A stretch of DNA of 64,000 nucleotides from an uncultured Gemmatimonadales bacterium (GCA_963793205.1 CAWBZM010000001.1:2354-66353); one strand, 5' to 3'. Shown: positions 24,256 to 49,534, numbered from the stretch's first letter. The notes: generated by a model from the sequence alone, not told the origin. A program made the numbers and translations.

Positions 24256-24322
24256 GGGTCGAGGGTCGAGGGTCGAGGGTCGGGGAGTCGGGATCGAGGC
24301 CACGACCCACGACCCTCGACCA
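24256..24322. repeat. Heptamer tandem repeat (GGGTCGA)n followed by inverted copies
   Basis: GGGTCGA x3 plus GGGTCGG, then ACGACCC ACGACCC TCGACCA, filling the tdh-kbl gap. Confidence 0.85.
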
Positions 24323-30993: not shown

Positions 30994-31130
30994 GAAGGCT
31001 TTCGGTCGCGAGGGACACTGGCGATACCTCGACGAAAGGGGGGACCCGCAACTGCTGGTATATAGTCGTAAGGGCCCTCTAAAATCATCGGCCACTCAGG
31101 CCTCCAGCGCAAATCGAGGCAACCGATTGG

Positions 31131-31151
31131 ACGATAGGCTGGTCCTATCGT
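31131..31151. promoter_or_regulatory. LysR-type operator between divergent fdsG and fdhD
   Basis: Perfect ACGATAGG-N5-CCTATCGT containing ATAG-N7-CTAT (T-N11-A); LysR gene about 1 kb away. Confidence 0.7.
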
Positions 31152-31224
31152 ATCGGCACAATGGCAGGGTTGGTTCAATGGTGGGACGTCAGAGTAGTAT
31201 TGTCCGGTCGGTCTCTGGAGGCAT

Positions 31225-32984: not shown

Positions 32985-32998
32985 GGCGGCTTCGCCGT

Positions 32999-33868
32999 TC
33001 AGGCGGGAATGTGCTGGCTCTCCAGCGTGCTGCTGACCGGCAGAGGCAGCGGTGGCTTGCCGACCATGACCCCGCAGGAGGGGGCCGGCTTGTTCCGCTT
33101 GTCGATCGGGCGATCCTCCCGGATCCACTCGCCATAGTGCGACAGGAACGCCTCCGGCGCCAGCGCATGGGCGCTGGGCATGAGGAGGTGGACCCCACCC
33201 GGCGCGGTGCGCTCCATGAGTCGCTCCAGGATCGTCCGCCGCTGATTCGAGGTTTCCGGATCCAGCACCCCGGTGTCGATCACGACGATGCTGACCTGCT
33301 CCGGCAGGTCAGGGGGGAATTGCCCCGTCGGCGCGACGTAGGTGCCGCAGCAGTGCCCCAGCGCCTCATCCGCCACGCGAGACTCGACCTGGTCGACATG
33401 GGTCATGTCGTTGCCGCAGAAGGTCACATTCACTTCGTGGGCGGCGAGCAGGTAGGCCAGCGGCGCCGCCTCCACACCCATCACCAGGGCGGTGTCGCCG
33501 GGTTCGAGGCGCGGCAGCAGCTGGGTCACCGGATTCCGCCGCTCGATGCCCCACCGGTTGGGCTCGCGCTGCGCCGAGCGAAGCTCGCGGAACCCCTTGG
33601 ACCACCGACGGTAGGGCTGCAGGGCGAGCCGCTTGTGAATCAGGCGATCCACCGAGTCGGCAATCAGCACTTCCGTCAGCAGGAACTGCTCCGACTGGGC
33701 CGCACCAAGTTCTCCCACCGCCTCGTCACCGAGCGTGAGCAGCTCGCGGCGCGACAGGCTGTTCTTGTAGGCCTCGATGCGCTGGAGCAGGTATTCCTGA
33801 TACTGTTGCTTCAGCGAAGGCATGGCGCGGCGGCGGCGCTGCTGCTGAAGCTGGATCGCGGTCAGCAT
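32999..33868 (-). CDS. Hypothetical protein: helical N-terminus plus degenerate class I SAM-methyltransferase-like fold
   Basis: PGDTALVMG...AYLLAAHEVNVTF...RRTILERLMERTAPGGVHLL resembles TehB-like MTases but lacks GxGxG; alternative start 33823. Confidence 0.7.
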   Translation of the reverse strand: MLTAIQLQQQRRRRAMPSLKQQYQEYLLQRIEAYKNSLSRRELLTLGDEAVGELGAAQSEQFLLTEVLIADSVDRLIHKRLALQPYRRWSKGFRELRSAQREPNRWGIERRNPVTQLLPRLEPGDTALVMGVEAAPLAYLLAAHEVNVTFCGNDMTHVDQVESRVADEALGHCCGTYVAPTGQFPPDLPEQVSIVVIDTGVLDPETSNQRRTILERLMERTAPGGVHLLMPSAHALAPEAFLSHYGEWIREDRPIDKRNKPAPSCGVMVGKPPLPLPVSSTLESQHIPA

Positions 33869-33896
33869 GTCTGGGTCGAGTGCCCGATTTTCCGCG

Positions 33897-33975
33897 GTGG
33901 GGAGAAACGGTGTAACGTCTTGCCGTACAAAGTGGTAGAATGTGGAGAAGTCGTCAAGTGCTGGGCGGGATGTGG
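33897..33975. promoter_or_regulatory. 10-bp-phased GTGG repeats (MraZ-box-like) overlapping a minus-strand TTGACG -35 element
   Basis: GTGG at 33932, 33942 and 33972, TGGG at 33962, GTGGGG at 33897; CGTCAA at 33952-33957. Confidence 0.55.
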
Positions 33976-33995
33976 ATTGTTTTGGGGGGAGGGGC

Positions 33996-34033
33996 GGGGG
34001 AACAGGGAAGAGGGAGCCCCGTTCCCCGTTCCC

Positions 34034-34036
<3 letters not shown>
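33996..34036. repeat. Short heptamer direct-plus-inverted repeat hairpin at the rlmI stop
   Basis: GGGGAAC AGGGAAG AGGGAGC then CCCGTTC CCCGTTC CCCTA. Confidence 0.6.
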
Positions 34037-35193
<1,157 letters not shown>

Positions 35194-35197
<4 letters not shown>

Positions 35198-35580
35198 GCG
35201 TCGGCGGCGCGATCCGGCCGGAGCACCGTGGCGCCCCGCAGGTATACATGACGGATCTCGGCGCGGCTCCGGGTGGTGTACGCATGGACCAGCAACCGGA
35301 TGCACCGCGGCAGCGAGCCGGGGACGGGGATTTCCGTCGAGTGCAGGATGGCGACGATCTTCCAGCCGTGGACCTCCGCGGCCCGCGCGGGAAAGGCGGC
35401 ATCGAGGTCGCTGGTCATCGTAAACATGGCGCTCACGATATCATCCGCCTGGAGTCCATTGGCCTCGTGCAGGAGCCGCAGCAACTCGTCGGTAGCTTCG
35501 ATGATCTGTTCCGCGGTGTTGGCCTCCACCGTGGTCGCCCCGCGTATTCCCTGGAGCCGATAGGAGGGTTCGTCGCTCAT
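35194..35580 (-). CDS. aroH: AroH-class chorismate mutase
   Basis: GIRGATTV, FTMTSDLDAAFPA, EIPVPGSLPRCIRLL, HVYLRGA..LRPD. Confidence 0.92.
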
Positions 35581-36202
35581 GGCGACTAATCTAGCGCAGC
35601 ACCTTCGCCTTATGCTGGTTACCGATGACCGTCTGCTGGCCGGTCGCGATCTGGTGGTGGTGGCTGAGCAGGCGGTCCGCGGGGGCGTGACGGCGATCCA
35701 GGTGCGCCTCAAGGTGCACCCGCCGAGGGCGCTGGTAGAGCTGGTTCGGCGACTCCGTACCACGATCCCGGTACCGGTGTTCGTCAATGATCGGCCCGAT
35801 GTGGCTGCGGCCGCAGGATGTGGTGTGCATCTGGGCCCCGACGATCTCCCGATCGACCTCGCGCGGCGCATCCTCCCGCCGGGGACGGTGATCGGTGCCA
35901 GTGTCGGCGGGGAGACGGAGGCGCGGCGGGGAGGGGTGGAGCTGGCTGATTACTGGGGTGTTGGGCCCTGGCGGGTCACCAGTACCAAGCCGGATGCCGG
36001 CACAGCGATCGGGGTCTCTGGCTTCGCCGCGGTGGTTGCCCTGGCGGGCGGTCGACCCTGCGTCGCCATTGGCGGGGTCCGCCCGGAGGATTGCGCCTTG
36101 ATCCGGGAACGTGGCGGTGCGGGTGTGGCGGTGGTGTCCGGGATCCTGGGTGAGCCGGATATTGAAGCGGCGGCTCGACGGTACGCCCTAGCGCTGGCGT
36201 AA
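35579..36202 (+). CDS. thiE: Thiamine-phosphate synthase
   Basis: LRLMLVTD, GGVTAIQVRLK, VNDRPD, GVHLGPDD, TSTKPDA, AIGGV, GVAVVS. Confidence 0.9.
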   Translation: MATNLAQHLRLMLVTDDRLLAGRDLVVVAEQAVRGGVTAIQVRLKVHPPRALVELVRRLRTTIPVPVFVNDRPDVAAAAGCGVHLGPDDLPIDLARRILPPGTVIGASVGGETEARRGGVELADYWGVGPWRVTSTKPDAGTAIGVSGFAAVVALAGGRPCVAIGGVRPEDCALIRERGGAGVAVVSGILGEPDIEAAARRYALALA

Positions 36203-37166
36203 GGCGGTCGGGCGGCGCACCAGGGCGATGTTGCGATTGTGCTCCACCAGTGTCCTGCTGAACAGGTGATGGCCGTCGGACTGAGCGACGAAATACAGAA
36301 ATGGAACGTCGGCCGGGTACAACGCGGCCTCGATGCTGGAGAGGCCGGGCGAGTTGACCGGCCCGGGCGGCAGCCCGGGATTCAAATAGGTGTTGTACGG
36401 CGAGGGGAACGCGTAGTCCTTGAAGTACAACCGGGTCTTTCGCTCGCCGGTCTTCTGCTGAATGGCGTACTGCACCGTCGGATCGGCCTGCAGGGGCATC
36501 CCGATCCGGAGTCGATTGGTGTAGACCCCCGCAATGGTCGCCCGCTCGTCGTCGTGCCGCGCTTCTCCCTCGACAATCGATGCCAGGGTCAGGATCTGGG
36601 TCCGGCTGAGCTTGAGTGCGTCCAGCCGTGCGTCCCACGCGGGGTTCCACTGCTGCTCGAACATCTGGACCATCGCCCGGACCAGTTCGTTGGCGGTGGC
36701 GGGGACCGGCAGGTTGTAGGTCTCGGGCAGGAGGTAGCCTTCAAGACTTGGCGCGTCAGGCGCGACGGCATTGCACCCGGCCCCGGTCCCTGGCCCGGAC
36801 CAGTACCGACTCGGCGGGGATCCCGAGACGCTGCTCCGCAAGGTCACACAGTTGGAGCAGGGTCAGCCCTTCGGGGACTGTGAAGCGGACGGTGGCCACT
36901 CTGCCTTTCTCCAGGGCCGCCAGCAGCTGCCATGCGCTCGCGTGGGGCGGAAGATCGTAGACGCCCGCTTTCACCGACCGGTCGGTGCCGCGCAGTCGTG
37001 CCGCGAAGCGGAAGAGCGAGGGGGAGCGGAGCAGCCCCCGGGCCATGAGCGAGTCAGTCACCTGCCCGAAGCTGGCGCCCACCGGCACGGTCACCCGGAC
37101 CGGCGCCCCTTCGGGGACACCGCCACAGGCGGCGAGCAACAGGAGAAATGGCAGGGCCCGTCTCAC
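36188..37166 (-). CDS. mltG: Endolytic transglycosylase MltG, frameshifted near 36790
   Basis: VKAGVY and TVPEGLT in ORF 36756-37166; LEGYLLPETY, LASIVEGE, LQADPTV, SPYNTY..PGLPPGP in ORF 36188-36847. Confidence 0.9.
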
Positions 37167-37606
37167 ACGCCACTCCCGCGGCGGCGGTCCAGCCAGCCCT
37201 GGAGCAGGACGGCGGCGGCGTGGGCGTCCACCTCCTCCTTGCGACCACGGGCGCTGGCGCCCTGCTCCCGCAGGACGCCGAGTACCCGGGCGGTGGTCAT
37301 CCGTTCGTCCGTCAGGTCCACGGGCAGTCCGGTCCGTCGTCCGACCAGCTCGGCCAATTCGCGGGCGGCGGCGGCACTCGGCCCCTCGGTCCCCTCCAGC
37401 GTGAGCGGCAGCCCCACGACCAGTCCGACCGGCTGATGGTCCGCCACGAGCGCGAGGAACTCGGTCATGGGGAAACGTTTCCCTTCGCGGCGGGTGAGCG
37501 TCTGGGTGGGGGAGGCGAGGATCTGGCCTTCATCCGACCGGGCGAACACCGATGCGCCGTTCGCCCCAATCGAGAGCGAGGATGCGACCGACGGGGGGAT
37601 CACCAT
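37163..37606 (-). CDS. ruvX: RuvX/YqgF pre-16S rRNA nuclease, frameshifted at the 5' end
   Basis: [14 protein letters not shown] in one frame; [24 protein letters not shown] in ORF 37163-37702. Confidence 0.9.
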
Positions 37607-37707
37607 AGGGGAAAGGTGAAAGGTGGCGGCTGAAAGGAGAAGGGCGGGGGGGAACGATGAGGACGGTGAAGGGGGCCGGTCGGGGGACCAGGCACCATTC
37701 ACCGTCC
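37607..37707. repeat. Degenerate purine-rich heptamer repeats with inverted copies in the rho-ruvX gap
   Basis: GGGAAAG GTGAAAG ... CTGAAAG GAGAAGG ... GGACGGTGAA, then CACCATTCACCGTCC. Confidence 0.5.
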
Positions 37708-37732
37708 GGGGTGGCGCGCCGCGACGGGCGGC

Positions 37733-38986
37733 CTACTGCGCCATCGTGCGCGAAGAACTCCTTGTTGGTCTTGGTGCGCTTCATCCGCTCCAGCAGGAAC
37801 TCCAGCGCCTCGACCGGCGGCATGTCGGCCAGGAAGTTGCGCAGCAGGTACACCCGGTTGAGCTCGTCCTTGTCCATGAGGAGCTCTTCCTTGCGGGTGC
37901 TGGTCCGCTGGATGTCGATGGCGGGGTAGATCCGGCGGTCGGCCAGGCGGCGGTCGAGCACCAGTTCCATGTTGCCGGTGCCCTTGAACTCCTCGAAGAT
38001 GACCTCGTCCATCCGGCTGCCGGTGTCGATCAGGGCGGTGGCGATGATGGTCAGGCAGCCGCCGCCGTCGATGTTGCGGGCGGCGCCGAAGAACCGCTTG
38101 GGCTTCTGCAGGGCGTTGGCGTCCACGCCGCCGGAGAGGATCTTGCCGGAGTGGGGCACCACGACGTTGTGGGCCCGGGCCAGGCGGGTGATCGAGTCGA
38201 GCAGGATGACCACGTCGCGGCCGTGCTCCACCAGCCGCTTGGACTTCTCGATGACCATGTCGGCCACCTGCACGTGGCGGTCGGCCGGCTCGTCGAAGGT
38301 GGAGGAGATGACCTCCGCCTTCACGTTCTCCTGCATGTCGGTGACTTCTTCGGGCCGCTCGTCGATCAGCAGCACGATCAGCACGACTTCCGGGTGGTTC
38401 TCGCTGATGGCGTTGGCCAGCTTCTGCATCAGGATCGTCTTGCCCGCCTTGGGCGGGGCGACGATCAGGCCGCGCTGGCCCTTGCCGATCGGGGAGAGGA
38501 GGTCCACCACCCGCATCGAGAGGTCGCTGGTGGTCTTCCGCTCGAGGCCGGATCCGCTGGTCGGGATAGCGGGGCCGGAGGTTGTCGAAGGCGATCCGGT
38601 GCTTGGTCTTTTCCGGCTCCTCGAAGTTGACGCTCTCGACCTTGAGCAGGGCCAGGTACCGCTCCCCCTCCTTGGGCGGGCGCACCTGGCCCATGACGGT
38701 GTCGCCGGTGCGCAGGTCGAACCGCTTGATCTGGCTCGGGCGAGACGTAGATGTCGTCGGGGCCGTAGAGGTAGTTCCAGTCCTGGCTGCGGAGGAAGCC
38801 GTAGCCTTCGGGGAGGATTTCCAGGACGCCCTCGCCGCGGATGACCGTGTCCTGGTCGAGCAGCGACTGCTCGATGCGGAAGATCAGGTCCTGCTTGCGG
38901 AGGCCGGAGTAGTTGGTGATGTTCAGCTGCTCGGCCAGCGCGTGCAGCTCGGCGACGGACTTCTGCTTCAGCTCGGCGATATCCAC
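37733..38986 (-). CDS. rho: Transcription termination factor Rho, several frameshifts
   Basis: [71 protein letters not shown] spread over three frames; GTG start 38986 (frame open to 39181). Confidence 0.95.
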
Positions 38987-39201
38987 AGGCGCAGTACTCC
39001 GCTCGGTGGTCGGACTGGGACTGGGACTCGGTGCTCCGGTCGGGAGCTGGCCTCCGGTCAATCGAGGGCGGGCCTTTGGGGCGGGCAAATGTCGTTGGGG
39101 TCGGAATTGAGCAACGGACCGGGGTGGTCCGAGTAGCGATCGCTGAAATTGTCTGAAGGGACGTCTGGGGCGAGCACTCAAAGTACCTAGGGAGCGCTCG
39201 A

Positions 39202-39230
39202 TATATAGGACGCCGGGTATCCACCGTCAA
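39202..39230 (-). promoter_or_regulatory. sigma70-type promoter of rho
   Basis: Minus strand TTGACG-17 bp-TATATA. Confidence 0.6.
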
Positions 39231-39238
39231 GGGCGAAC

Positions 39239-40380
39239 ATGGAATCACTGACGGCTGCTTCTCCGCCTGGCGGGTCATCCAGGCCGGGCCGCGCGAGGTG
39301 GTCGAGGGGCTCGTGCCGCCGGAGCACCGGGGTCCCTCCCCCGCGCTGGCGGCCGCCCTCGCGGCGTGGCCGCACCCGCACTACTGGGGCACCCCGGATC
39401 GGTCCGAACTGGTCCTGATCCGGCCCATCGCCCGGCCCCGTCCGGTGGCCTGGGTGCTTCATGCGGGCCTCTTGCTGGTGACGGTGATCTGCTGCCCTGG
39501 GGGCCGGAGCGGCGTTACGGGGCGCTTTCTCCAGACTCCAGGGCAGCGGCCCTGCCGGGTGGCTCTGGGCCGCCCTGGCATTCTTCCCCGAGTTCCTGTC
39601 CCAGCCGGCGGCGGTGTCTCTGGAGTGGATGGAGCTTCGCCCTGCCGCTGCTGCGGATCCTGCTGGTCCACGAGCTGGGGCATTATGTCGTGGCCCACCG
39701 CTACGCGATCGATGCCTCGCCCCCCTATTTCCTCCCGATCCCTCCCTCCCTCTCCCCGATCGGCAGCCTCGGCGCCTTCCTCCGGCTGCGCTCGGCGGTG
39801 GTCGACCGCCGGCAGCTGCTCGATGTGGGAGCGGCCGGTCCGCTGGCCGGATTCGTGGTGGTGCTGGTGGTGCTGGCCTGGGGCTATGCCACGTCCACTC
39901 CGGTGCCGCACGAGGTGGGCCGGCCCGACAGCTTCATCCGGTTCGCCGGGGGGCACGATTGGCCTGGGCGACTCGCTGCTGACGATGGCCTTCCGACAGT
40001 GGTTCCTGCCCCAGGCGGCCGCGGTACACCTGAGCCCGGCGGCCTTTGCCGGGTGGGCCGGGGCCCTGATCACCGGGCTCAACCTGTTGCCGCTCTCACA
40101 GCTCGACGGTGGGCACGTGGCCTACGGGCTGCTGGGGAAGCGGCAGACGGTGCTGGGATTACTCACGCTGCTGGCCCTGGTCGGGCTCTCCAAGGGGTGG
40201 TCCGCATGGCTGATCTGGGTGGTCCTCACGCTGATGCTCGGCGGCTGGCGCTGGAGTCACCCGTCGGTGCTCTGTCCGGAGCGTCCGGCACCGGCGCAGC
40301 GGCACATTCTTGGCTGGCTCTGCGTTGCCATTCTGATCCTCACCTTTGTCGCGGTGCCTTTCCCCCCGCCTCCTCGCTAG
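39239..40380 (+). CDS. Site-2 protease (M50) family membrane metalloprotease, frameshifted
   Basis: LLVHELGHY and AAGPLAG in ORF 39366-40466; [12 protein letters not shown] in ORF 39298-40380. Confidence 0.88.
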
Positions 40381-40462
40381 GCGGTCTCGCTTCCGCCCAG
40401 CCCGCTTCCGGGCCATACTTAGGCCAACGGCTGTTCCCCCCCCTCCAGCCCGGCATGTATCC

Positions 40463-40645
40463 GTGAGTGAAAGCGAACGCTACCACAAGCTGCGTCACGA
40501 CCTGGCCAATCCCCTCTCTGCGCTCCTGGCGGAGACTCAGCTGCTGCTCCTCAACGAATCGAAGCTGGACCCCGAAACCCTGACCAGCCTGCGGGAGATG
40601 GAAGCACTCGCGGTGCGCATGCGATCGATTTTGCGGGAAGGATGA
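40463..40645 (+). CDS. Stand-alone HisKA (DHp) miniprotein, about 60 aa
   Basis: KLRHDLANPLSALLAETQLL H-box helix plus second helix LREMEALAVRMRSILR; no ATPase domain follows. Confidence 0.7.
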   Translation: MSESERYHKLRHDLANPLSALLAETQLLLLNESKLDPETLTSLREMEALAVRMRSILREG

Positions 40646-40650
40646 GCACT

Positions 40651-40822
40651 GCGGGTGAGAACAGCAGGTGAGAAATGCAGGTGAGAAATGCAGGTGAGAA
40701 CTGCGGGTGAAAGAGGCGGGTGAGAACGGCAGGTGAGGACGGCAGGTGAGAACGGCAGGTGAGGACGGCGCCGCTCTCACCTGCGTTCTCACCCGCTTCT
40801 TTCACCTGCCGTTCTCAGCTGC
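40651..40822. repeat. Nine tandem 13-bp repeats (GCRGGTGAGAACG) followed by about four inverted copies
   Basis: Units start at 40651, 40664, 40677, 40690, 40703, 40716, 40729, 40742 and 40755; inverted (GTTCTCACCTGC-like) units at 40773-40822. Confidence 0.95.
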
Positions 40823-42588
40823 TGCCGATACCGCCAGCCATTTCCGAGATAGGCCAGCAGCAGCACCACGCTGGCGCCGCTGATGCCCAGCCGGTAGGCC
40901 AGCGGCCCGGTCCCGGCGGAGACAAATCCCTCGATCACTCCCGCCACGATCAGCAGCAGGATCACCGCCGTGATCATGCGCATGGCCAGCCGACCGGCCA
41001 GGGTGAGCGCTTCGCTCCGGGTCAGGTTGCCGGGCGCGATCACCGCTTTGCCGAGCAGGAAGCCCGCCGCGCCCGCCACCCAGATCGCGAACAGTTCGAG
41101 GACTCCGTGCCCGATGATGAAGGTCCAGAGGTAGCCTAACAATCCGACATTGGCGAAGTGCCCGGAGATGGTGCCGACGGAGAGCCCGTTGAAGGCGAGC
41201 AGGACCAGGGAGCCCACGCCGAGGAAGATCCCGCCGGCGAAACAGAAGAATGCCACCTGGATGTTGTTGGTCATGATGGCTGAGGCCATGCCGGGCTGAT
41301 CGGTATCTCCCGCCTCGTAGTACCCCTGGCCGGCCGCGCTCCGGAGGTGTCCCGCCTGGGCCCGCTCCAGCATCCCCTGGGGAATCACATCCTCCGCCAG
41401 GGACGGGCGCTCCCGCAGCAGCAGAAAGCCCCCTGCGGCCGGCACGATGAAGACCAGGAAGGCGAGGAGCACCGCACGCCAGGCTTCCACGATGCCGGCT
41501 GGCGCCTCGCGCAGCAGGTATGTCCAGATCCGCCCACCGACCCGTGGCTCGTCGCGGTAGAGCGCATTGTGTCCGGCGGCCACCAGCCGCCCCAGTCGCA
41601 AGAGGACCGGGGGCTGGGCCTGGTAGGTGCGTGCCCGCGCGAGATCGGCGGCCACCTCGCGATAGCGGGCGGCAAAGTCGGGGAGTTCCTCCGCCGCGAA
41701 GCTGTCGAGCCCATCGCGGGTGGCCCGGGTCGCCATCACCTCGAATGCGTCCCATCGGCCCGACTGCCGGGTGACCAGCCGTTCGGCCACCCCGCCCCCG
41801 GCCGCGCGCCGGGTCTCGCCGCCGGCCGCCCGTGATCCGAAGCGTCCCCGTCGGCGGCCCAGCTCCTCCTGATATATCGCGGCGAGAAAGGCTTCGGGGT
41901 CGGGTTCCCGCACCGGGAAACGGGCGGCCAGTCGTTCGGTCAGGCGAGCCGCGACGCGGCCACGCACCTCGGCCGGCAGGGTGGCGGCCCGCTCGGTGAA
42001 TTCGCGCAGCAGTCGGAATTCCTCGTCGGCCAGCTCGGGGACACCCGTCAGCTCGTCGCCATCGGTCGCGGCTGTCGTGAGGGCCGCCGCCGTCGGTTGC
42101 AAGGCCTCGGCCGGCCGGTCGCGGACGACCACGGTGCCCGCGACCAGATCGCCGAGCCGGCGGGCCCGCGGGTGGATCGCGACGAAGAGGGCCCCAATCA
42201 GATACGGCGGCGGGAGGAAGTCGGCGACCCGGACGAGGTTCCGGGTGGCGGCAGCGCCGAAGGTGATGGCATGCCCGGTCTCGCTGACCACCCGGATTCC
42301 GGCCCGCCGTTTCCCGGGCGTCTGGCCACCCCGGAACCCTTCGAAGAAGGTGAAATAGCCCCACCACGAGACGAACACGATGATGCCGAGGAGGGCACCG
42401 GTCCAGCCCGACCCGGGGAGGAGCCAGGACACGAGCAGCAGGATGGCGACCATCCAGGCCGCCAGGATCAGGAGGTCGAGCAGGGCGGCAAACGCCCGCG
42501 ACCCGAGGCCCGCCACCTCGTAGTCGAGGACGACGTGCTCGGGGGTTTCGACCTCGAGATGCTGACGGTAATCAGGAGTCGTGCTCAT
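40789..42588 (-). CDS. RDD domain - SpoIIM (DUF95) fusion membrane protein
   Basis: ETPEHV..AGLGSRAFAALLD, GQTPGKR, RRLGDLVAGT (RDD); IMTNNIQVAF, HGVLELFAI, AGVIEGFVS (SpoIIM). Confidence 0.9.
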   Translation of the reverse strand: MSTTPDYRQHLEVETPEHVVLDYEVAGLGSRAFAALLDLLILAAWMVAILLLVSWLLPGSGWTGALLGIIVFVSWWGYFTFFEGFRGGQTPGKRRAGIRVVSETGHAITFGAAATRNLVRVADFLPPPYLIGALFVAIHPRARRLGDLVAGTVVVRDRPAEALQPTAAALTTAATDGDELTGVPELADEEFRLLREFTERAATLPAEVRGRVAARLTERLAARFPVREPDPEAFLAAIYQEELGRRRGRFGSRAAGGETRRAAGGGVAERLVTRQSGRWDAFEVMATRATRDGLDSFAAEELPDFAARYREVAADLARARTYQAQPPVLLRLGRLVAAGHNALYRDEPRVGGRIWTYLLREAPAGIVEAWRAVLLAFLVFIVPAAGGFLLLRERPSLAEDVIPQGMLERAQAGHLRSAAGQGYYEAGDTDQPGMASAIMTNNIQVAFFCFAGGIFLGVGSLVLLAFNGLSVGTISGHFANVGLLGYLWTFIIGHGVLELFAIWVAGAAGFLLGKAVIAPGNLTRSEALTLAGRLAMRMITAVILLLIVAGVIEGFVSAGTGPLAYRLGISGASVVLLLAYLGNGWRYRQQLRTAGERSG

Positions 42589-42691
42589 GTCGCGCGGGTC
42601 GGGGACAGCTTCAATAGTAGTCGTAACGGTTCACTTCCCAACCTCCGTCGGGGTGGGCATCTTCCACGCCTCACCCGCTTCGGAGCCCTGC

Positions 42692-43465
42692 ATGACTGCA
42701 CCGGTATTGCGACCGCTCTCGCTGGGGGAAATCCTGGACGTGGCCTTCGGGCTGTACCGCGCGCTGTTCGTCCCGCTGTTGCTGGTGACCATCGGGACGC
42801 AGGGCCTGCCGATGATCCTGTCGATCTATATCACGGCGGAGGGTGGCCCACTGATCAACCTCCCGCTGTACCTCCTCGTGCTGGTGGGCAGTGTGATCGC
42901 GAGTGCCATGGCATCGGCGGCCAGTACGTTCATTCTGTCTGAGAACTATATGGGGCGTCGGCTGACGGCCGGGGAGGCGCTTGGCCGGGCGATGCCGTTT
43001 CTCGGCCGGGTCATCACCCTGGCGTTGCTGACGAGCCTGCTGGTCGGACTGGGCGTGCTGCTGTTCATCGTGCCGGGTCTCATCCTTCTCGCGGGGCTGG
43101 TGCTGGCGACGCCCGCCCTGGTGATCGAAGGACGGCCGCACGCGACCGATGCCATGGGCCGGGCCTGGGCGCTGTCGCGGGGCCACCGCTGGAAGGTATT
43201 CGGCTGCCTGGTGGTGACCATGCTGCTGGTGATTCTGCCGGTCTTCGCTCTGGGAGCCGCGACCTCGGTCGCCAGCTTCAAGAGCGGGAATGTGGTGATG
43301 ACCCCGTCCGTCATGGGGATCCTACTGCTCACGGTCGCCCAGGGGCTCCAGCTGATGATCTATCCACTGCTGTACTGCGTCCTCACCGTGGCCTACTACG
43401 ATCTCCGGGTCCGCAAGGAAGCGTTTGACCTGGAGGTGCTGGCCGCGGGTCTCGTCCAGGCGTGA
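42692..43465 (+). CDS. Multi-pass membrane protein of the type found in MoxR/DUF58 clusters
   Basis: LRPLSLGEILD N-terminus, several TM helices, YYDLRVRKEAFDL C-terminus. Confidence 0.8.
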   Translation: MTAPVLRPLSLGEILDVAFGLYRALFVPLLLVTIGTQGLPMILSIYITAEGGPLINLPLYLLVLVGSVIASAMASAASTFILSENYMGRRLTAGEALGRAMPFLGRVITLALLTSLLVGLGVLLFIVPGLILLAGLVLATPALVIEGRPHATDAMGRAWALSRGHRWKVFGCLVVTMLLVILPVFALGAATSVASFKSGNVVMTPSVMGILLLTVAQGLQLMIYPLLYCVLTVAYYDLRVRKEAFDLEVLAAGLVQA

Positions 43466-44091
43466 TCGCGCAGGCCTCTTCGCCGCCGGTGATCCCCGCT
43501 GATTCGCTGCAGCGGGTAGTCGATTCCATCTTCGCCCAGCCCGCCTATCAGTGGGTGGAGCGCCGCAACCCACTGGCGTTTCTCCGGCGCTGGTTTCTGG
43601 CGCTGCTCGACTGGCTCCGGGGCCTCGAGTCCACCCAGCCCGCGCTGTACTGGTTTCTGTTCAGCGTGCTGGTGGCGCTGCTCGTCGCGATCGTGGTGCA
43701 CGCCGTGGTGGTGATGAGCCGGACGCTGCGGGCCGCCCGCCTCCCGGCGGAGGCGGCCGCCACGCCGCTCGCCCGTACCCGTGGTGCGGCGTGGTACCGC
43801 GCTGAGGCGGTGCGGCTCGCGGCGGCCGGCCGCTATCCCGACGCGATGCAGGCGGACTTCCTGGGTCTGGTGCTGGAACTCGATCAGCGCCATCTACTGC
43901 GGTTCCATCCGAGCAAAACCCCGCGCGAATATTCGCTGGAGTTGCACGCGGGAGAAGGGGGGCGCGACACCTTCCGTGGCCTGGTCGGCACCCTCTACCG
44001 CTGCGCCTTCGCGCGGGCCCCGTGTGGTCCGGCTGAATTTGCCCAGTGGCAGGGCGCGACCCAGGCGGAGCGGTATGCGGCCCCGGTCTGA
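43462..44091 (+). CDS. DUF4129-like membrane protein
   Basis: One TM, then AVRLAAAGRY.DAM...SKTPREY...YRCAFA; position in cluster. Confidence 0.7.
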   Translation: MIAQASSPPVIPADSLQRVVDSIFAQPAYQWVERRNPLAFLRRWFLALLDWLRGLESTQPALYWFLFSVLVALLVAIVVHAVVVMSRTLRAARLPAEAAATPLARTRGAAWYRAEAVRLAAAGRYPDAMQADFLGLVLELDQRHLLRFHPSKTPREYSLELHAGEGGRDTFRGLVGTLYRCAFARAPCGPAEFAQWQGATQAERYAAPV

Positions 44092-45289
44092 GGCGGCCTT
44101 CGCCCTTGGGGCGGTGATGGTCCTGATCGCGCTCGCGGCCGCGGCCGGGGCCCGGGGTCGGTCGGGGACCGAGCAGGATCCCCGGGCCTCGACTTTTCTG
44201 AGCGGGCCGGACGGGGCTCAGGGTCTGGCGGATGGCCTGCGCCGAATGGGCGTGACGGTGGTGTCCTCCCGCCGGTTGCTTCCGGAACTGCGCCGGGATA
44301 CGACGGTGGTCCCCCGGACCCTGGTGGCGTTGCTCAATCCCGCGGTGGGCTATTCCGGGGCGGAGCGGCAGGAGCTGCTGACGTGGGTGGAGGCGCGCAA
44401 GGGGCGGGACCTGCTCCTGGCGGGCCCGATGACCGCCAGCTTCATGCGGTGCTTCGGCTTTGTGCCGGAGCGCCGGCCCCATGGCAGCGTGGAGCTGGAT
44501 CAGACCGGGGTGCGCGCCTGGCCTGCCATGAGCACGGTGCTGGGCACCTCACGCGAGGTCATTGTCGTGGACTCGAGTCGGCAGGCGGATGCCACCGTCA
44601 CCCGATGCGTGGTGCCGCCGGTGGCACGGGTCGACACCCTCCTCACCACTCGCACGGGCCGGGTGGTCGCGGTCCGGTTGTGGCGGGACGACCTGGACCA
44701 GCGCATCCTGCTGGTGGCGGACGACCTCCTCCTGCGGAACCGCGCCCTGCGCGAGACGCCGGCGGGGCCGTTTGCACTCGGCCTCTTCGTCGGCCGCTAC
44801 GACCGGGTCATCTTCGACGAGGAGCACCAGGGATTCGGCCAGGGTGGCTCGCTGCTGGGGGCGATGCTCGACTGGAGTGCCCGTTCGCCCTGGGGGTGGG
44901 CGGTCTGGCAACTGCTGGTGGTCGGATTGCTGGCCCTGCTGGCCGGGGCGGTTCGTTTCGGCCCGGTCCGGCAGGTGCTCGTCCGCCGTCGGCGCTCGCC
45001 GCTGGAGCACGTGCGTGCCCTCGCCACCGCGCTGGCCGCTGCCCGCGGCCATGACGTCGCCATCGGCGCGATCGTCCAGGGTCTGCATCGGCGGCTGCAC
45101 CTCGGTGCCCGGCGCGGCCGAGTCGAGTGGCGGACGTGGGTGGATCGTCTGGCAGGGCAGCTTCGCAGTCCCCGCGCGCAGGACGCCGCGCGCACCTTGC
45201 AGTCCCTGACCCGGCCCGGTCAACCGCCTGAGGGCGTGCTCCGGGCCGCCAACGCCGTGGAGGATGTGTGGCAGGAATTACGCCCCTGA
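44075..45289 (+). CDS. DUF4350-like membrane protein
   Basis: N-terminal TM, STFLSGPDGAQGL, VIFDEEHQG, second TM followed by RFGP, EHVRALA. Confidence 0.72.
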   Translation: MRPRSEAAFALGAVMVLIALAAAAGARGRSGTEQDPRASTFLSGPDGAQGLADGLRRMGVTVVSSRRLLPELRRDTTVVPRTLVALLNPAVGYSGAERQELLTWVEARKGRDLLLAGPMTASFMRCFGFVPERRPHGSVELDQTGVRAWPAMSTVLGTSREVIVVDSSRQADATVTRCVVPPVARVDTLLTTRTGRVVAVRLWRDDLDQRILLVADDLLLRNRALRETPAGPFALGLFVGRYDRVIFDEEHQGFGQGGSLLGAMLDWSARSPWGWAVWQLLVVGLLALLAGAVRFGPVRQVLVRRRRSPLEHVRALATALAAARGHDVAIGAIVQGLHRRLHLGARRGRVEWRTWVDRLAGQLRSPRAQDAARTLQSLTRPGQPPEGVLRAANAVEDVWQELRP

Positions 45290-46248
45290 GTCCCGAGGAA
45301 GTCCGGACCGAGGCCGAGGCCGCGGGCCGGATCATCGACCAGTTGGGTCGTGTCATCCTGGGCCAGGGCCCGGTCCTGCGGGAAGCGGTGCTGGCCCTGA
45401 TGGCGCGGGGGCACGTCCTGTTCGAGGGCGCACCCGGGACGGCCAAGACGCTGCTGGTACGCACTCTCAGCCGCACCCTGGGACTGGTCTTCCGCCGCAT
45501 CCAGTTCACGCCGGACCTGATGCCGAGTGACATCACCGGCGTCAACCTGCTCACCCCCGCCGGGGAGTTCAGCTTTCGGCCCGGCCCGCTGTTCGGGGAC
45601 CTGGTGCTGGGCGACGAGATCAACCGCGCCCCGGCCAAGACCCAGGCGGCGCTGCTGGAGGCGATGCAGGAGCGGCATGTCACCGTCGACGGGACGAGTC
45701 ACGCCCTCTCCGACAGCTTCACGGTGTTCGCCACCCAGAATCCGATCGAGTTCGAAGGGACCTATCCGCTGCCCGAGGCGGAGCTGGACCGGTTCCTGAT
45801 CAAGAGCCTGCTGAGCTATCCCGATGCCGACGCGGAGCAGGGGGTGCTCACCCGCGTCCTGGCGGGATTCGATTCCGCCGAGCCCGAGAGCTTCGGGATC
45901 GCGACGGTCATGGACGCGGCCGGACTGGCCCGGCTGCGGGGCGCGGTCCGCCGGGTGCGGGTCGAGCCGAGCCTGGTGGCCTATATCACCACGCTGGTGC
46001 GCGCGACCCGCGACGCCCCGGCTCTCACCCTGGGCGCTTCGCCCCGGGCGAGTGTGGCGCTGCTCAAGCTGGCGCAGGCGGCGGCGCTCCTCGATGGGCG
46101 GGACTTCGTGATTCCCGATGACGTGAAGCTGCTTGCTCCCCCCGTGCTGCGGCATCGCATCGCCGTCGCCCCCGAACTGGAACTGGAAGGTGTGACGCCG
46201 GACCAGGCGCTGCGCACCATCCTCGAACGCATTGAGGCCCCCCGATGA
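45268..46248 (+). CDS. moxR: MoxR-family AAA+ ATPase
   Basis: GHVLFEGAPGTAKT, RIQFTPDLMPSDITG, DEINRAPAKTQAALLEAM, ATQNPIEFEGTYPLPEAELDRF, GASPRA. Confidence 0.95.
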   Translation: MAGITPLSPEEVRTEAEAAGRIIDQLGRVILGQGPVLREAVLALMARGHVLFEGAPGTAKTLLVRTLSRTLGLVFRRIQFTPDLMPSDITGVNLLTPAGEFSFRPGPLFGDLVLGDEINRAPAKTQAALLEAMQERHVTVDGTSHALSDSFTVFATQNPIEFEGTYPLPEAELDRFLIKSLLSYPDADAEQGVLTRVLAGFDSAEPESFGIATVMDAAGLARLRGAVRRVRVEPSLVAYITTLVRATRDAPALTLGASPRASVALLKLAQAAALLDGRDFVIPDDVKLLAPPVLRHRIAVAPELELEGVTPDQALRTILERIEAPR

Positions 46249-48182
46249 ACCGACCCCTTCGTCTCCTGCTGCTGGTCCTCGGTCTCACCTCCCCGCTGCT
46301 GGCGCAGGAGCCGCCGCGCGGGGTGCGGCGGACCATTCCGATCACCCGGGCCTTCGCGCATGGGCTCCAGCTGGGGACCCGCGACTCGACCGGACTGCCC
46401 GGCCCCAGGTACTGGCAGATCCGGACCGACTACACCCTGACCGCCAGCTATGCGCCAGCGACCGGGATGATCGAAGGGAGCGGAACGGTGGTGCTGCACA
46501 ACCTGTCGGACACCGCACTGTCGCAGATCGTGGTGCAGCTCGACCAGAACCGGTTCACCGCGACCGGTACGCGCACCCGCAATCCGCCGACGGTGTCCCG
46601 CGGCATCACGGTCACTCGGCTGGTGGTCAACGGCGCGGTGATTGACGTCGGGCCACTGCAGCCGGCGTGGGCGGCGCCCACGACAATACGAGTGCCGCTC
46701 CCGGTGCCGATTGCTGCGCAGGCCGACGCCACCATTGCCATGGACTGGGTGGCCGAGGTGGTGGATGTGCCCCTGCGACGCGGCGGCGCCCGGGGCGGGC
46801 GCCGGGGTGCCCAGGTGGTGCAGGCGACGCAATGGTATCCTGCGATCGCAGTGTACGATGATCTACGGGGGTGGGACCAGGAGCCACACCTGGGGGGCAG
46901 CGAGTTCTATCACAACTTCGGCTCCTATGATGTCACCCTTGATCTGCCCGCCGGCTGGCTGGTCGGCGCAACGGGAGGCCTGGTGAACGCCGGGGAGGTA
47001 CTGACGCCGACGGTGCGGGACCGGCTGACGGCGGTGTTGGCCAGCGACACCCAGATGACCATCGTCGCGGCCGACGAGCGGGGCGCCGGTCTGGCCACGC
47101 TGGGAGGCGAGCGGCTGCGCTGGCATTTCGTGGCGGACTCGGTGAACGACTTCGCCTGGGCGGCCTCGGCCGACTACGTGTGGGAAGCGACCCGCGCCAT
47201 GATTCCCCAGCGCGGTGCCATTCCGATCCATCTCCTGTATTTGCCGGAGCACGACCGGTATCGACAGACGGGGGCGATGGCGCGCCACGCGCTCGAGTTC
47301 TATTCGGCCCTCTGGTTTCCCTATGCCTGGCCGCAGTTCACCCAGGCCGATGGTCCCGAAGGGGGCATGGAATATCCGATGCTCACGCTGAGCGGCCCCG
47401 GGTTTGGCGTCACCGACCACGAGATCGGGCACCAGTGGTGGCCCATGATGGTGGGCACCAATGAGACCTGGTACGGCTGGATGGATGAAGGGTTCAATCA
47501 GTACATGAACCTCCTCAGTGAGGCGGACTGGAAGCACCAGGCGGTCCAGCTGGACAGCCTCGGCGGCAGCGCGGGGCTGACGGCGGGCGAGGAGGCCCAG
47601 GCGCCGATGATGTGGAACAACAACTACGGCGGGCCCTTTACCAGTTACGTCACCTACCGGCGAGCCCCGATGATGCTGTCGATGCTGGGCGCCATGGTGG
47701 GCGATAGTGTTGTGGTGCAGGCCATGCGGAACTACGCGATACTCTGGCGATTCAAGCATCCCTCGCCGTGGGATTTCATGTTCGGCATGAACCGGTTCCT
47801 GCGGCAGGACCTGGGATGGTTCTGGTACTACTGGCTCTTCACCACCGAATCGAGTGACGGCAGCATCAGTAGCGTGACGACGAAGGGCGGCCGCACGACG
47901 GTGATGGTACGCCAGAACGGCGAGATGCCCGCGCCGATCGTCCTGCAGGTCGAGTTCGCACCCGATGGTCCGGCCCCCCGACCGATGAAGAACGCGGAGA
48001 TCACCGGGCGAACCGCCGTGGTGCGCTGGCCGGTCGACGTGTGGTTCAGCGGCCAGCGCACCTTCGCGGCGGAGCTCAACTTCGGCAGCGCGAAGATTGC
48101 CCGCATCACGCTGGATCCCGGCGTGCGCTTTCCCGATCAGGACCGAAGTGACAACGTGTGGCCCCGTGAGGCCGCACCCTGA
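46245..48182 (+). CDS. Secreted M1-family zinc aminopeptidase
   Basis: Signal peptide, GGMEYP, HEIGH...WMDEG (HEXXH-18-E), WRFKHPSPWDF. Confidence 0.88.
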   Translation: MNRPLRLLLLVLGLTSPLLAQEPPRGVRRTIPITRAFAHGLQLGTRDSTGLPGPRYWQIRTDYTLTASYAPATGMIEGSGTVVLHNLSDTALSQIVVQLDQNRFTATGTRTRNPPTVSRGITVTRLVVNGAVIDVGPLQPAWAAPTTIRVPLPVPIAAQADATIAMDWVAEVVDVPLRRGGARGGRRGAQVVQATQWYPAIAVYDDLRGWDQEPHLGGSEFYHNFGSYDVTLDLPAGWLVGATGGLVNAGEVLTPTVRDRLTAVLASDTQMTIVAADERGAGLATLGGERLRWHFVADSVNDFAWAASADYVWEATRAMIPQRGAIPIHLLYLPEHDRYRQTGAMARHALEFYSALWFPYAWPQFTQADGPEGGMEYPMLTLSGPGFGVTDHEIGHQWWPMMVGTNETWYGWMDEGFNQYMNLLSEADWKHQAVQLDSLGGSAGLTAGEEAQAPMMWNNNYGGPFTSYVTYRRAPMMLSMLGAMVGDSVVVQAMRNYAILWRFKHPSPWDFMFGMNRFLRQDLGWFWYYWLFTTESSDGSISSVTTKGGRTTVMVRQNGEMPAPIVLQVEFAPDGPAPRPMKNAEITGRTAVVRWPVDVWFSGQRTFAAELNFGSAKIARITLDPGVRFPDQDRSDNVWPREAAP

Positions 48183-49516
48183 TGTACCTGCCGGATCGCC
48201 GCTGGTACCTCGGCGCCGCGCTCCTGGCACTGGTGGCGCCCTTCGCGCTGGTGTGGCCGGGGGTCGCCGCGGTCCTGATTGTGCTCGATCTGCTCTGGAT
48301 CGGGGCGGCGGTGGTGGACGGGTGGCGGATCGACGGCACTCGCGGGGGTGAGGCGCCGTCCACCCTGGTGGGGGTGGAACGCGAGCCGCCGGCCGCGTTC
48401 TCCGTGGGCCGGCCGCTGCCCATTGTCTATCGCTGGACCAACCCCACCGGGCGGCCACTGGAGCTTGAGGTGCGGGAGCAGTTCCCCGTGACGCTGACGG
48501 AGCCTCCGGGCGCCCGGCGGCTGGTCCTCCCGGCGACCGGCACGCTGGTGGAGCGGGTGCTGGTGCAGCCCGCCGCCCGTGGCAAGGCCTCCGCCGGGCG
48601 GCTGTCGCTTCGGGCGCGGGCACCGTGGGGGCTGGTATGGCACCAGTTCCGGCTGGATCGGCCGTGGCAGGCGACCGTGTACCCGAACCTGGTGGGTGCC
48701 TCGCTCCGGTCGCTGCCCACCCAGACGCAGCGCCGGCGGGAGGCGGGTTTCCGCAGCGTTCGCACGCTCGGGGAAGGGCGGATGTTCGAGAGCCTGCGGG
48801 AATGGGTACCGGGGGAGGACACCCGGCTGATCGACTGGAAGGCCACCGGGCGCCGCGGCAAGGTGATGGCACGGCAGTACGAGGATGAGCGACGGCAGCA
48901 GGTGCTGATCGTGATCGATGCGGGGCGGATGCTGACGCCCGAGATCGACGGCCGGGCGCGGCTGGAGTCGGTGATCGAAGCCGCGCTGCACCTGGCCCAC
49001 AGCGCGATCGATCACGATGATAACGTCGGGTTGATGGTCTTCGCTGACACCATCCAGCACTATCTCGCCCCGGCGCGTGGCCGCCGGGCGCTGCGTGCAG
49101 TGGTGGACGCGCTCGCCTCGGTGGAGGGGCGGCTGGTGGAGCCGGACTATCCCGCAGCGTTCGCCCAGCTGGCGATGCGCAACCGGAAGCGGGCGCTCAC
49201 CGTGTTCTTCACCGATGTGGTCGATCGCACGGCCAGCGAAGCGCTGGTGGGTCAGCTCGGGACGCTGCGGCCTCGGCATCTGCCGCTGGCGGTCACGCTG
49301 CGGGATCCTGCCCTTGAGCGGCTGGCGGTCACCCGGCCCGCGACCACCGGCGCCGCTTTCGAACGGGCGGCGGCGGAGGAGCTGCTGCAGTCCCGCGAAG
49401 AGGCGCTGGGGGAGATGCGACGGCGGGGGGTCCTGGTGCTGGATGTATCGCCCGCCGGCGCGAGTGCGGCGGTGGTGGACCAGTACAACCGACTGAAACG
49501 ACGCGGCGCCCTGTAA
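48182..49516 (+). CDS. DUF58 / vWA-like protein
   Basis: N-terminal TMs, FESLREWVPGED.R.IDWKAT.R, DAGRM MIDAS-like motif, FTD. Confidence 0.9.
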   Translation: MYLPDRRWYLGAALLALVAPFALVWPGVAAVLIVLDLLWIGAAVVDGWRIDGTRGGEAPSTLVGVEREPPAAFSVGRPLPIVYRWTNPTGRPLELEVREQFPVTLTEPPGARRLVLPATGTLVERVLVQPAARGKASAGRLSLRARAPWGLVWHQFRLDRPWQATVYPNLVGASLRSLPTQTQRRREAGFRSVRTLGEGRMFESLREWVPGEDTRLIDWKATGRRGKVMARQYEDERRQQVLIVIDAGRMLTPEIDGRARLESVIEAALHLAHSAIDHDDNVGLMVFADTIQHYLAPARGRRALRAVVDALASVEGRLVEPDYPAAFAQLAMRNRKRALTVFFTDVVDRTASEALVGQLGTLRPRHLPLAVTLRDPALERLAVTRPATTGAAFERAAAEELLQSREEALGEMRRRGVLVLDVSPAGASAAVVDQYNRLKRRGAL

Positions 49517-49534
49517 CACGAGCCTGCGGGCAGG

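Follow-up and report, generated by a model that had tools for sequence, protein, structure and literature searches.

The 64,000-nucleotide stretch of DNA under study (referred to here as the window) corresponds to C1:2354-66353, that is, positions 2354 to 66353 of contig C1, in the 8-contig, 3,999,592-bp, 67% G+C genome of an uncultured Gemmatimonadales soil bacterium (GCA_963793205.1), the assembly of which is 83% complete. In the window, two convergent genes have between their stop codons a tandem array of 13-bp units which is followed, after a short loop, by inverted copies of the same unit. We propose that this structure (the focal element) is a cargo-less fold-back element, one of at least 39 lineage-restricted copies, which was copied into the space between the convergent stops, grew by replication slippage, and would end transcription arriving from both sides, a reading to which, judged from sequence, a probability of about 0.5 is assigned. 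The predicted role of such elements, that of a two-way transcription terminator or 3′-end hairpin, is considered likely.

Structure of the focal element

The focal element consists of the following parts, none of which is assigned to a strand.

40643 to 40769: purine-rich arm, 9.8 tandem copies of the 13-bp unit GCRGGTGAGAACN (Tandem Repeats Finder [TRF] period 13, 84% matches, score 142)
40770 to 40774: apical loop GCCGC, 5 nucleotides (nt), separating the two arms
40775 to 40822: pyrimidine-rich arm, 3.8 copies of the 13-bp unit in inverted orientation (TRF period 13, 71% matches, score 50)

These copy numbers and the 5-bp loop bear out the preliminary description of this DNA, which had reported tandem 13-mers followed by about four inverted copies. 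The best pairing between the arms joins positions 40690 to 40728 with positions 40784 to 40822 (39 nt, 90% complementary), and a variant unit, GTGAAAGAG, is mirrored as CTTCTTTCAC in the opposite arm. Folding of the region as RNA yielded energies of -113.4 kcal/mol for the plus strand (z score, -7.9) and -102.1 kcal/mol for the minus strand (z score, -8.4), neither of which was matched by any of 200 shuffles. Nowhere in the 64-kb window did an Rfam family score at or above its gathering threshold.

The two arms are intimately associated with the ends of the flanking genes, which are listed below.

40463 to 40645, plus strand: small gene encoding a 60-amino-acid (aa) HisKA-like protein, convergent with the RDD-SpoIIM gene (Pfam HisKA E value of 1.3e-5, just under the cut-off)
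40789 to 42588, minus strand: gene encoding a 599-aa membrane protein with RDD and SpoIIM domains (Pfam E values of 1.6e-21 and 3.4e-34, respectively)

On the plus strand, the purine-rich arm presents a TGA triplet every 13 nt, at ten positions which rotate through the three reading frames, and the first three bases of the array constitute the TGA stop codon of the 60-aa upstream gene. The inverted arm carries TCA (TGA on the minus strand) at positions 40777, 40789, 40802, and 40815, and thus also in all three frames. As previously claimed and here confirmed by translation, the inverted copies supply the stop codon of the RDD-SpoIIM gene (40789 to 40791) together with its last 11 codons (QQLRTAGERSG). 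Alignment of the RDD-SpoIIM protein with those of 18 relatives indicated that conservation ceases at ...YLGNGWRY, beyond which a short tail differs in each relative; in the present genome, this variable tail is made up of the array-encoded residues. The HisKA-like protein, in turn, retains an intact C terminus, its TGA abutting the array, and is represented in relatives by homologs of equal length with 65 to 91% identity, its gene being present in 67 of 80 related loci. It is, therefore, a conserved resident of the locus rather than an inserted small gene. The protein comprises a phospho-acceptor helix only, and across Gemmatimonadales its gene is always convergent with that of RDD-SpoIIM, the ends of the two genes often overlapping.

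A genome-wide family of paired arrays

Tandem arrays identified by TRF across the whole genome (period of 5 to 16, at least three copies) were screened for a periodic match to their reverse complement within 100 bp. A partner array of this kind accompanied 199 of the 641 arrays, compared to 4 of 641 in a control in which the sequence was reversed but not complemented. When sorted by period, partnered arrays accounted for 88 of 216 arrays with period 7, 38 of 128 with period 8, and 67 of 92 with period 13, as opposed to 0 of 95 with period 6 and 3 of 63 with period 9. Merging of the partnered arrays produced 128 elements with a total length of 23,004 bp, among which 39 are composed of the 13-mer. 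The 13-mer elements measure 116 to 633 bp (median, 308 bp), with arms of 20 to 525 bp and loops of 0 to 59 nt, and a pattern describing a dimer of the 13-bp unit occurs 645 times in the genome.

The architecture had been characterized in the preliminary description as shared structure without shared sequence, which holds between unit families but fails within the 13-mer family, whose unit is common to at least 39 loci. Such recurrence of a single unit argues for copying between loci rather than for a common generating process alone. Signs of slippage are likewise apparent in the form of locus-specific higher-order units and of a 24-copy arm, 98% identical to itself, which faces an arm of just 64 bp. 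A search for partner arrays located 100 to 2000 bp apart returned 49 pairs, the majority of which represent the long arms of known elements or two neighboring elements, leaving as loop cargo only a cassette bearing a PF05635 gene (discussed below) and a few noncoding inserts.

Two loci on contig C4 were conspicuous. At C4:245300-251400 (L092), four 13-mer elements within 6 kb bracket each minus-strand gene or operon, one of them being approximately 680 bp in length (26.5 and 24.8 copies). At C4:244114-244390 (L090), CAGGGAA and GTTCCCC arms surround approximately 210 bp of nonrepetitive, A+T-richer DNA with a TTGACC promoter-like motif, a layout which indicates that the arms can bracket regulatory sequence besides tight loops.

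Position at stop codons and polarity

Gene contexts were assigned by means of our own crude gene caller, which relies on open reading frames (ORFs) and codon usage and which predicted 3679 genes (86% coding), with the following distribution.

Convergent spacers (458 in the genome): 44 of 128 elements; 24 of 39 13-mer elements
Co-directional spacers (2755 in the genome): 70 of 128 elements; 15 of 39 13-mer elements
Divergent spacers (458 in the genome): 9 of 128 elements; 0 of 39 13-mer elements
Inside genes: 5 of 128 elements; 0 of 39 13-mer elements

Convergent spacers are preferred over divergent ones, with an odds ratio of 5.3 (P = 6e-7) in the full set of 128 elements and a P value of 9e-8 in the 13-mer elements. 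The proposed anchoring at stop codons withstood a genome-wide scan for enrichment at stops: among the 158 element sides which face the 3′ end of a gene, the median distance to the stop codon is 4 bp, with 108 sides lying within 10 bp and 51 having the stop codon within the array itself, whereas the 88 sides facing start codons lie at a median distance of 53.5 bp. In the 13-mer family, the stop codon falls within the array on 37 of the 63 stop-facing sides, and 30 of these 37 stops are TGA.

A strict polarity was also evident. The purine-rich arm is the 5′ arm in 122 of the 128 elements, a property which holds for both strands; no element shows the opposite order, and the remaining six are composed of units without purine bias. 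This purine-first arrangement spans unrelated units, including GGGGAAC, GACTCGT, ACGTGGGT, AACAGGG, GGGTCGA, and the 13-mer. The preliminary description had correctly observed that a few purine-rich units come first, while its further statement that the pyrimidine-rich run is the longer one does not apply in general, as either arm can be longer. Arrays without a partner display a corresponding bias, those near gene 3′ ends being purine-rich on the sense strand in 43 cases versus 15, and those near 5′ ends being pyrimidine-rich on the sense strand in 32 cases versus 4. The polarity constitutes a directly testable design rule.

Gain of the focal element and lineage restriction

The RDD-SpoIIM protein was used to retrieve 80 loci from relatives, nearly all of which belong to Gemmatimonadota/Gemmatimonadales, with a best identity of 70%. 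In the 67 relatives which possess both convergent genes, the median length of the stop-to-stop spacer is 1 bp, the genes overlapping in 33 cases and being separated by 0 to 30 bp in 17, by 31 to 80 bp in 12, and by a longer distance in 5. The corresponding spacer in the present genome, at 143 bp, consists wholly of array, and its contrast with the mostly empty spacers of the relatives indicates that the focal element represents a gain. Tandem arrays in or at this spacer were detected in 8 of the 67 relatives (clearly so in 5), most sites thus being empty, and the comparison of filled and empty alleles which had been suggested as a check was in this way borne out. None of these arrays employs the 13-mer unit; they are instead built from AGCTAAG, GTGAGAA/TCACTTC, CGTGATC, or 8-mers starting with a stop codon. 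In two relatives (L016 and L078), a one-armed 8-mer array, TGACCGYC, present in 8 to 9 copies, lies past the RDD-SpoIIM stop, with the gene's own TGA located within the first unit, which suggests that some arrays begin by duplicating the stop codon region.

Across the 80 relative loci (640 kb), 35 elements were identified in 28 loci, all with different units, and 30 of the 35 are purine-first. Recurrence of the architecture with unrelated units, as initially reported, therefore extends from this genome to 28 of 80 other Gemmatimonadales loci. The 13-mer itself is restricted: its dimer pattern had no match in 60 related genomes, 36 of which belong to the same genus, and a looser trimer pattern, GGTGAR-N7, matched 927 times here, not at all in the 36 congeners, and once elsewhere. 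GGGGAAC trimers, in comparison, were found in 28 of the 36 congeners (1 to 504 matches per genome), whereas among 24 genomes of other families just 2 contained them. Unit families thus wax and wane at the species level.

A metagenome contig from a related lineage (L192, 1122 bp, which ends within an array) carries the 13-mer family in the same architecture. The flank of this contig shares 83% identity with C4:1027107-1027804, at which the present genome has a 39-bp spacer without an element. This contig represents an independent assembly of a 13-mer element as well as a second contrast between filled and empty alleles, and its existence renders an assembly artefact unlikely. In practical terms, arrays of this kind break short-read assemblies and can misguide gene callers at C termini.

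Proposed mechanism of bidirectional termination

The elements are interpreted as enlarged gene-end hairpins of the terminator type, mainly because ordinary hairpins share their bias and because a continuum of intermediate forms exists at the end of rho. Stems of at least 10 bp which are not formed by arrays were present in 75 of the 235 convergent spacers, in 148 of the 1495 co-directional ones, and in 11 of the 352 divergent ones. Those at gene 3′ ends had a purine-rich 5′ arm in 140 cases and a pyrimidine-rich one in 67, a weaker version of the element bias, while the purine-rich 5′ arm was found in 6 versus 5 cases in divergent spacers and in 35 versus 43 cases in a coding-window control (stems of at least 8 bp). 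At the rho site, 38 of the 46 relatives with sufficient downstream sequence possess a stem of at least 10 pairs directly past the stop codon, with 33 of these being purine-first and 5 reversed, and in about half of the cases the stop codon is also where the hairpin starts. The structures range from plain GC-rich stem-loops to a similar GC core flanked by 7- to 9-bp repeat arms, the repeat units being related in related genomes.

The focal element places a stable hairpin directly 3′ of a gene and between convergent genes, as is expected of a bidirectional terminator. A consensus scan of positions 30001 to 50000 of the window returned six canonical sites consisting of a hairpin and a T run, a chance-level number in view of the 6.0 +/- 3.0 obtained in shuffles, and no such site at the outer ends of the focal element; U-rich pieces are short and confined to the interior of the units. 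Within each unit of the 3′ arm, a U-rich piece (UGUUCU or UUUUCU) follows a C-rich one (CACCCGC).

According to the mechanism which we propose, an element would be copied between loci and then enlarged by replication slippage, and the resulting drift of arm lengths would account for the unequal arms and the locus-specific unit variants. Transcribing from either gene, RNA polymerase would meet the purine-rich units first and the complementary pyrimidine-rich units next. Translation that reads through the stop codon would be halted within 39 nt by the TGA found in every frame, and it is this capping of all frames by one TGA per unit that would allow an element to sit on, or even inside, gene ends. 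Since tandem arms could pair in any register, each new 13-nt unit would find some upstream unit as a partner, and closure of the hairpin would directly trail the polymerase. The alternation of C-rich stem pieces and U-rich pieces along the 3′ arm may repeatedly, if weakly, reproduce the geometry of intrinsic terminators (a stem and then a U-rich tract) in this genome of 67% G+C, every unit offering another chance of termination, and the hairpin would in addition shield both mRNA 3′ ends. Finally, the purine-first polarity would place the weaker pyrimidine-RNA:purine-DNA hybrid under the polymerase. Should the elements indeed terminate transcription, a high-G+C lineage would be building its two-way stop signals from repeats rather than from a U run.

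Several points weigh against this interpretation. In the 70 co-directional elements, the sense RNA was the more stably folded in 38 cases and the antisense RNA in 32 (Wilcoxon P = 0.47), and G-U pairs were similarly distributed (288 of 4030 versus 316 of 4099); the lack of a sense/antisense folding difference means that no signature of RNA selection beyond the DNA palindrome is apparent. Some elements reach 633 bp and have highly unequal arms; their size lies far beyond that required for termination and indicates neutral or selfish growth. Some elements are situated within operons (for instance, between tdh and kbl), and nine lie between divergent genes. Neither a transposase nor a target-site duplication nor a conserved end was recognized by eye at the junctions of the 39 13-mer elements. 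The explanation of the polarity leans on a general rule, namely, that pyrimidine-RNA:purine-DNA hybrids are the less stable ones, and the gene contexts depend on a crude gene caller.

Probable relationship to PF05635 cassettes

The genome encodes two members of the PF05635 (23S intervening sequence/Avd-like four-helix-bundle) family, one of which lacks adjacent arrays, while the other (C2:418519-418887, 122 aa) lies between 8.4 copies of GGCGGTCG and 3.9 copies of the complementary GACCGCCC, forming an 8-mer-armed cassette at C2:418426-418982 (L088, L115). Throughout the genus, 35 of 39 genomes contain between 1 and 12 PF05635 copies, many of which are located 50 to 350 bp from contig ends in short-read assemblies. 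In all 30 of the loci examined within the genus (L093 to L122 from congeners), the gene is enclosed by a tandem array on one side and the inverted copy of that array on the other, which bears out, for this genus, the statement in the preliminary description that genes for four-helix-bundle/bAvd-like proteins are often flanked by short repeats. The loops of these cassettes measure 404 to 499 bp, the gene may occupy either orientation, and the units differ between loci; 18 cassettes are purine-first, 2 are reversed, and 10 are ambiguous. At the site orthologous to the cassette of the present genome, the PF05635 gene is absent from all 29 congeners, most of which also lack arrays there (one or two contigs end approximately 110 nt downstream). 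The enclosure of the gene by arrays in 30 of 30 loci, taken together with its absence from the orthologous site, implies that the arms travel with the gene.

As similar arms surround these mobile-looking cassettes, the 13-mer elements are probably their cargo-less relatives; the focal element, with its 5-nt loop, has no PF05635 ORF between its arms. A fuller account, which we advance tentatively, would regard the 13-mer elements as nonautonomous members of a transposase-less class of fold-back mobile elements, the cargo-bearing form of which carries PF05635, and would attribute to a lineage-specific burst the placement of at least 39 copies at stop codons, to which they would donate stops in all frames and two-way terminators. 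The PF05635 connection offers a way to approach this orphan gene and the widespread protein family to which it belongs, and it bears on the origin of the abundant 7- to 13-bp repeats of many bacterial genomes. Within the open-access literature and bioRxiv, we found no account of these elements in Gemmatimonadota nor of PF05635 genes within repeat hairpins.

Alternative explanations

The alternative which survives best, and which is nevertheless rather doubtful, holds that the focal element is a relic or nonautonomous derivative of a PF05635 cassette, its arms being terminal inverted repeats which were mobilized in trans or which have lost their cargo, with any terminator effect being secondary. 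It draws on the invariable location of PF05635 genes between inverted tandem arrays (30 of 30 loci) and on the absence of the present genome's own cassette from 29 of 29 congeners, as well as on the proximity of many PF05635 matches to contig ends (50 to 350 bp), the common polarity of cassettes and cargo-less elements, and the burst-like, lineage-restricted nature of the 13-mer family. Yet no PF05635 gene with 13-mer arms is present in this 83% complete assembly, no remnant of cargo was found in the loops of the 13-mer elements, and the PF05635 protein is not a known recombinase. Moreover, repeat arms after rho appear to grow around plain hairpins which are free of cargo.

It is unlikely that the element arose purely locally, through in-place expansion of the stem of a gene-end hairpin by slippage and arm-to-arm template switching without any transfer between loci. 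The continuum observed at the rho stop would be accommodated by such a process, as would the related units of related genomes (e.g., GGTGAAG versus AGTGAAG), the locus-specific array variants, and the 8-mer arrays of L016 and L078 which start with the gene's own stop codon. For the 13-mer family, however, a local origin is disfavored, given that one unit occupies at least 39 dispersed loci and occurs in 0 of 36 congeners searched, and that the overlapping or abutting focal stops of most relatives leave no hairpin from which an element could grow.

A function in Rho loading appears quite unlikely. Under this explanation, surplus C-rich pyrimidine units which remain unpaired would serve as a tract resembling a Rho utilization (rut) site, as might be envisaged for the RDD-SpoIIM mRNA, with 4 purine-rich and approximately 10 pyrimidine-rich units. 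The unequal arms of the focal element and of many others, the C-rich and G-poor composition of the 3′ arm, and the location of the rho gene in the window would be compatible with such a role, but the purine-rich arm is the longer one in many elements, which leaves no free C-rich tract, and the polarity persists where the arms are equal.

Very unlikely, too, is that the elements act through some other specific structure, whether as a G-quadruplex switch, as a site of RNase III processing, or as a binding array for a roadblock protein. Their G-rich first arms resemble the GGGAATC arrays of Xanthomonas, which are described as quadruplex-forming (PMC4692102), but the G runs of the 13-mer do not exceed three residues, are spaced by 10 nt, and are missing in GCAGGTG variants. 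A binding protein would have to co-evolve with each of several unit families per genome, all of which are subject to species-level turnover. Long double-stranded RNA would suit RNase III, and an RNA processing site had been among the functions initially suggested; nonetheless, in a survey of genomes G000 to G110, no RNase III domain (PF14622, with PF00636 searched in the present genome only) was detected here, in five good congeners, or in any of 45 same-class genomes which are at least 90% complete, as a consequence of which processing of the RNase III type is unlikely. The domain was present in 14 of 15 genomes from other classes of the phylum, and its absence here looks like a clade-wide loss. 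Loss of RNase III as a permissive cause of the elements was rejected, as two complete same-class genomes which lack the enzyme yielded 0 elements in the 200 kb covered in each; seven RNase III-positive genomes of other classes yielded 1 element in 380 kb, and there is no simple correlation with RNase III.

Mobilization of the elements as relatives of repetitive extragenic palindromes (REPs) or REP doublets forming hairpins (REPINs) by a REP-associated tyrosine transposase (RAYT; Y1 HUH transposase) is highly improbable and was rejected: notwithstanding their nature as dispersed extragenic palindromes at gene 3′ ends and the presence of one PF01797 gene (E value of 8.7e-15), the 3.3-kb locus of that gene contains neither arrays nor inverted repeats of at least 14 bp (arms no more than 60 bp apart), several unrelated unit families would share a single candidate enzyme, and the arms are tandem and variable in length rather than forming a fixed 20- to 40-bp palindrome.

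Two further candidate causes were set aside. Templated synthesis by a retroelement or a diversity-generating retroelement was rejected, since no RVT_1 domain was found in the 83% complete genome. A repair defect behind the growth of the repeats was likewise rejected, as MutS, MutL, and an SbcCD-like pair are all encoded, so that missing repair offers no simple explanation. At C4:924961-925522, the match to MutS domain V is split across adjacent frames at 925428/925430, which may reflect a frameshift or an assembly indel.

Other elements in the window

Three additional elements are located at gene ends in the window.

24256 to 24321, no strand assigned: element between the tdh stop codon and the kbl start codon (same-strand genes), consisting of 6.3 copies of GGGTCGA followed by complementary CCACGAC-type units
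33983 to 34033, minus strand: short degenerate element after the rlmI stop codon (TAG), consisting of 2.4 copies of GGGGAAC followed by a degenerate GTTCCCC-like pyrimidine run
37608 to 37703, minus strand: degenerate element past the conserved end of rho, consisting of GGTGAAT/GGTGCCT units followed by CCTTCAC/CCTTTCA units

The recurrence of the architecture at tdh, rlmI, and rho, as put forward in the preliminary description, is thus clear in the case of tdh, while the rlmI and rho elements are short and weak and both escaped the automatic genome screen. The element after rho is the local version of the conserved rho-site hairpin described above. On the minus strand of positions 37530 to 37760, the rho reading frame extends approximately 70 codons beyond the Rho end of 43 of 46 relatives (18 nt after ...KEFF), and a conserved TAG at 37733 to 37735 lies one base out of frame, which points to a genuine frameshift or else to an indel in the assembly.

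Comparison with known systems

The REP, bacterial interspersed mosaic element (BIME), and REPIN sequences of enterobacteria and pseudomonads are dispersed, genome-specific palindromes which lie at the 3′ ends of genes, frequently where two genes converge, and for which roles in termination and in mRNA 3′-end stabilization have been proposed. The Gemmatimonadales elements are similarly dispersed, genome-specific, and extragenic, but whereas REPs are fixed palindromes of approximately 35 bp whose cognate RAYT gene is itself flanked by REPs, the elements described here have variable tandem arms and are not associated with the Y1 gene. A 2026 preprint (10.64898/2026.03.23.713779) reportedly refers to REPs as dual regulators of the 3′ untranslated region. 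Resemblance to MITEs (miniature inverted-repeat transposable elements) lies in the many dispersed copies, the inverted termini, and the presence/absence differences among relatives; unlike MITEs, no target-site duplication, conserved ends, or associated transposase was found among the 39 copies.

The Foldback (FB) transposons of Drosophila possess long inverted termini composed of tandem subrepeats, with unequal and variable arms, and are mostly loop-poor, a minority containing a coding loop. They are eukaryotic, carry a transposase in some copies, and generate target-site duplications; the likeness is one of build only, as neither a transposase nor duplications were found for the Gemmatimonadales elements. 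Bidirectional intrinsic terminators consist of a hairpin between convergent genes with an A-rich 5′ flank and a U-rich 3′ flank on both strands. The elements share with them a two-sided hairpin with purine-rich 5′ and pyrimidine-rich 3′ flanks on both strands, but in place of a stem of 5 to 15 bp they have a stem of tens to hundreds of base pairs made of tandem repeats, and they lack a canonical U run.

The intervening sequence (IVS) of the 23S rRNA of Coxiella burnetii, which acts as a selfish element, comprises a long stem whose loop holds a small ORF of the S23p/PF05635 family (PMC4990558). The PF05635 cassettes of the genus share this build; the focal element, in contrast, has no ORF and is located between protein-coding genes rather than in rRNA, and IVS excision makes use of RNase III, the domain of which was found in none of the 45 same-class genomes. 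For each of these systems (REP/BIME/REPIN sequences, MITEs, Foldback elements, and the ORF-bearing 23S IVS), at least one of the features that define it is missing here.

Among published cases, the closest is that of the paired GGGAATC arrays which Rehm et al. (2015; PMC4692102) described in Xanthomonas, comprising 70 to 75 pairs of heptamer arrays, one on each strand, in convergent orientation. These arrays lie within 50 bp of, or overlap, sense-strand stop codons, are underrepresented between divergent genes, and vary widely in copy number among close relatives; a reanalysis of transcriptome sequencing (RNA-seq) data placed starts or stops of transcripts within these repeats at a higher frequency than within a set of controls (PMC4692102). 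Both systems comprise tandem arrays of one short unit on opposite strands, which are convergent and purine-first, lie near or overlap stop codons, and are rare between divergent genes. They differ in that the Xanthomonas arrays form a single heptamer family which is read as quadruplex-forming and prefers four units (PMC4692102), whereas in the Gemmatimonadales genome the 13-bp unit is unsuited to quadruplexes and carries a stop codon in every frame, arms reach 525 bp, 7- and 8-mer families co-exist with the 13-mer, the bias toward convergent gene pairs is strong, and the host belongs to a different phylum.

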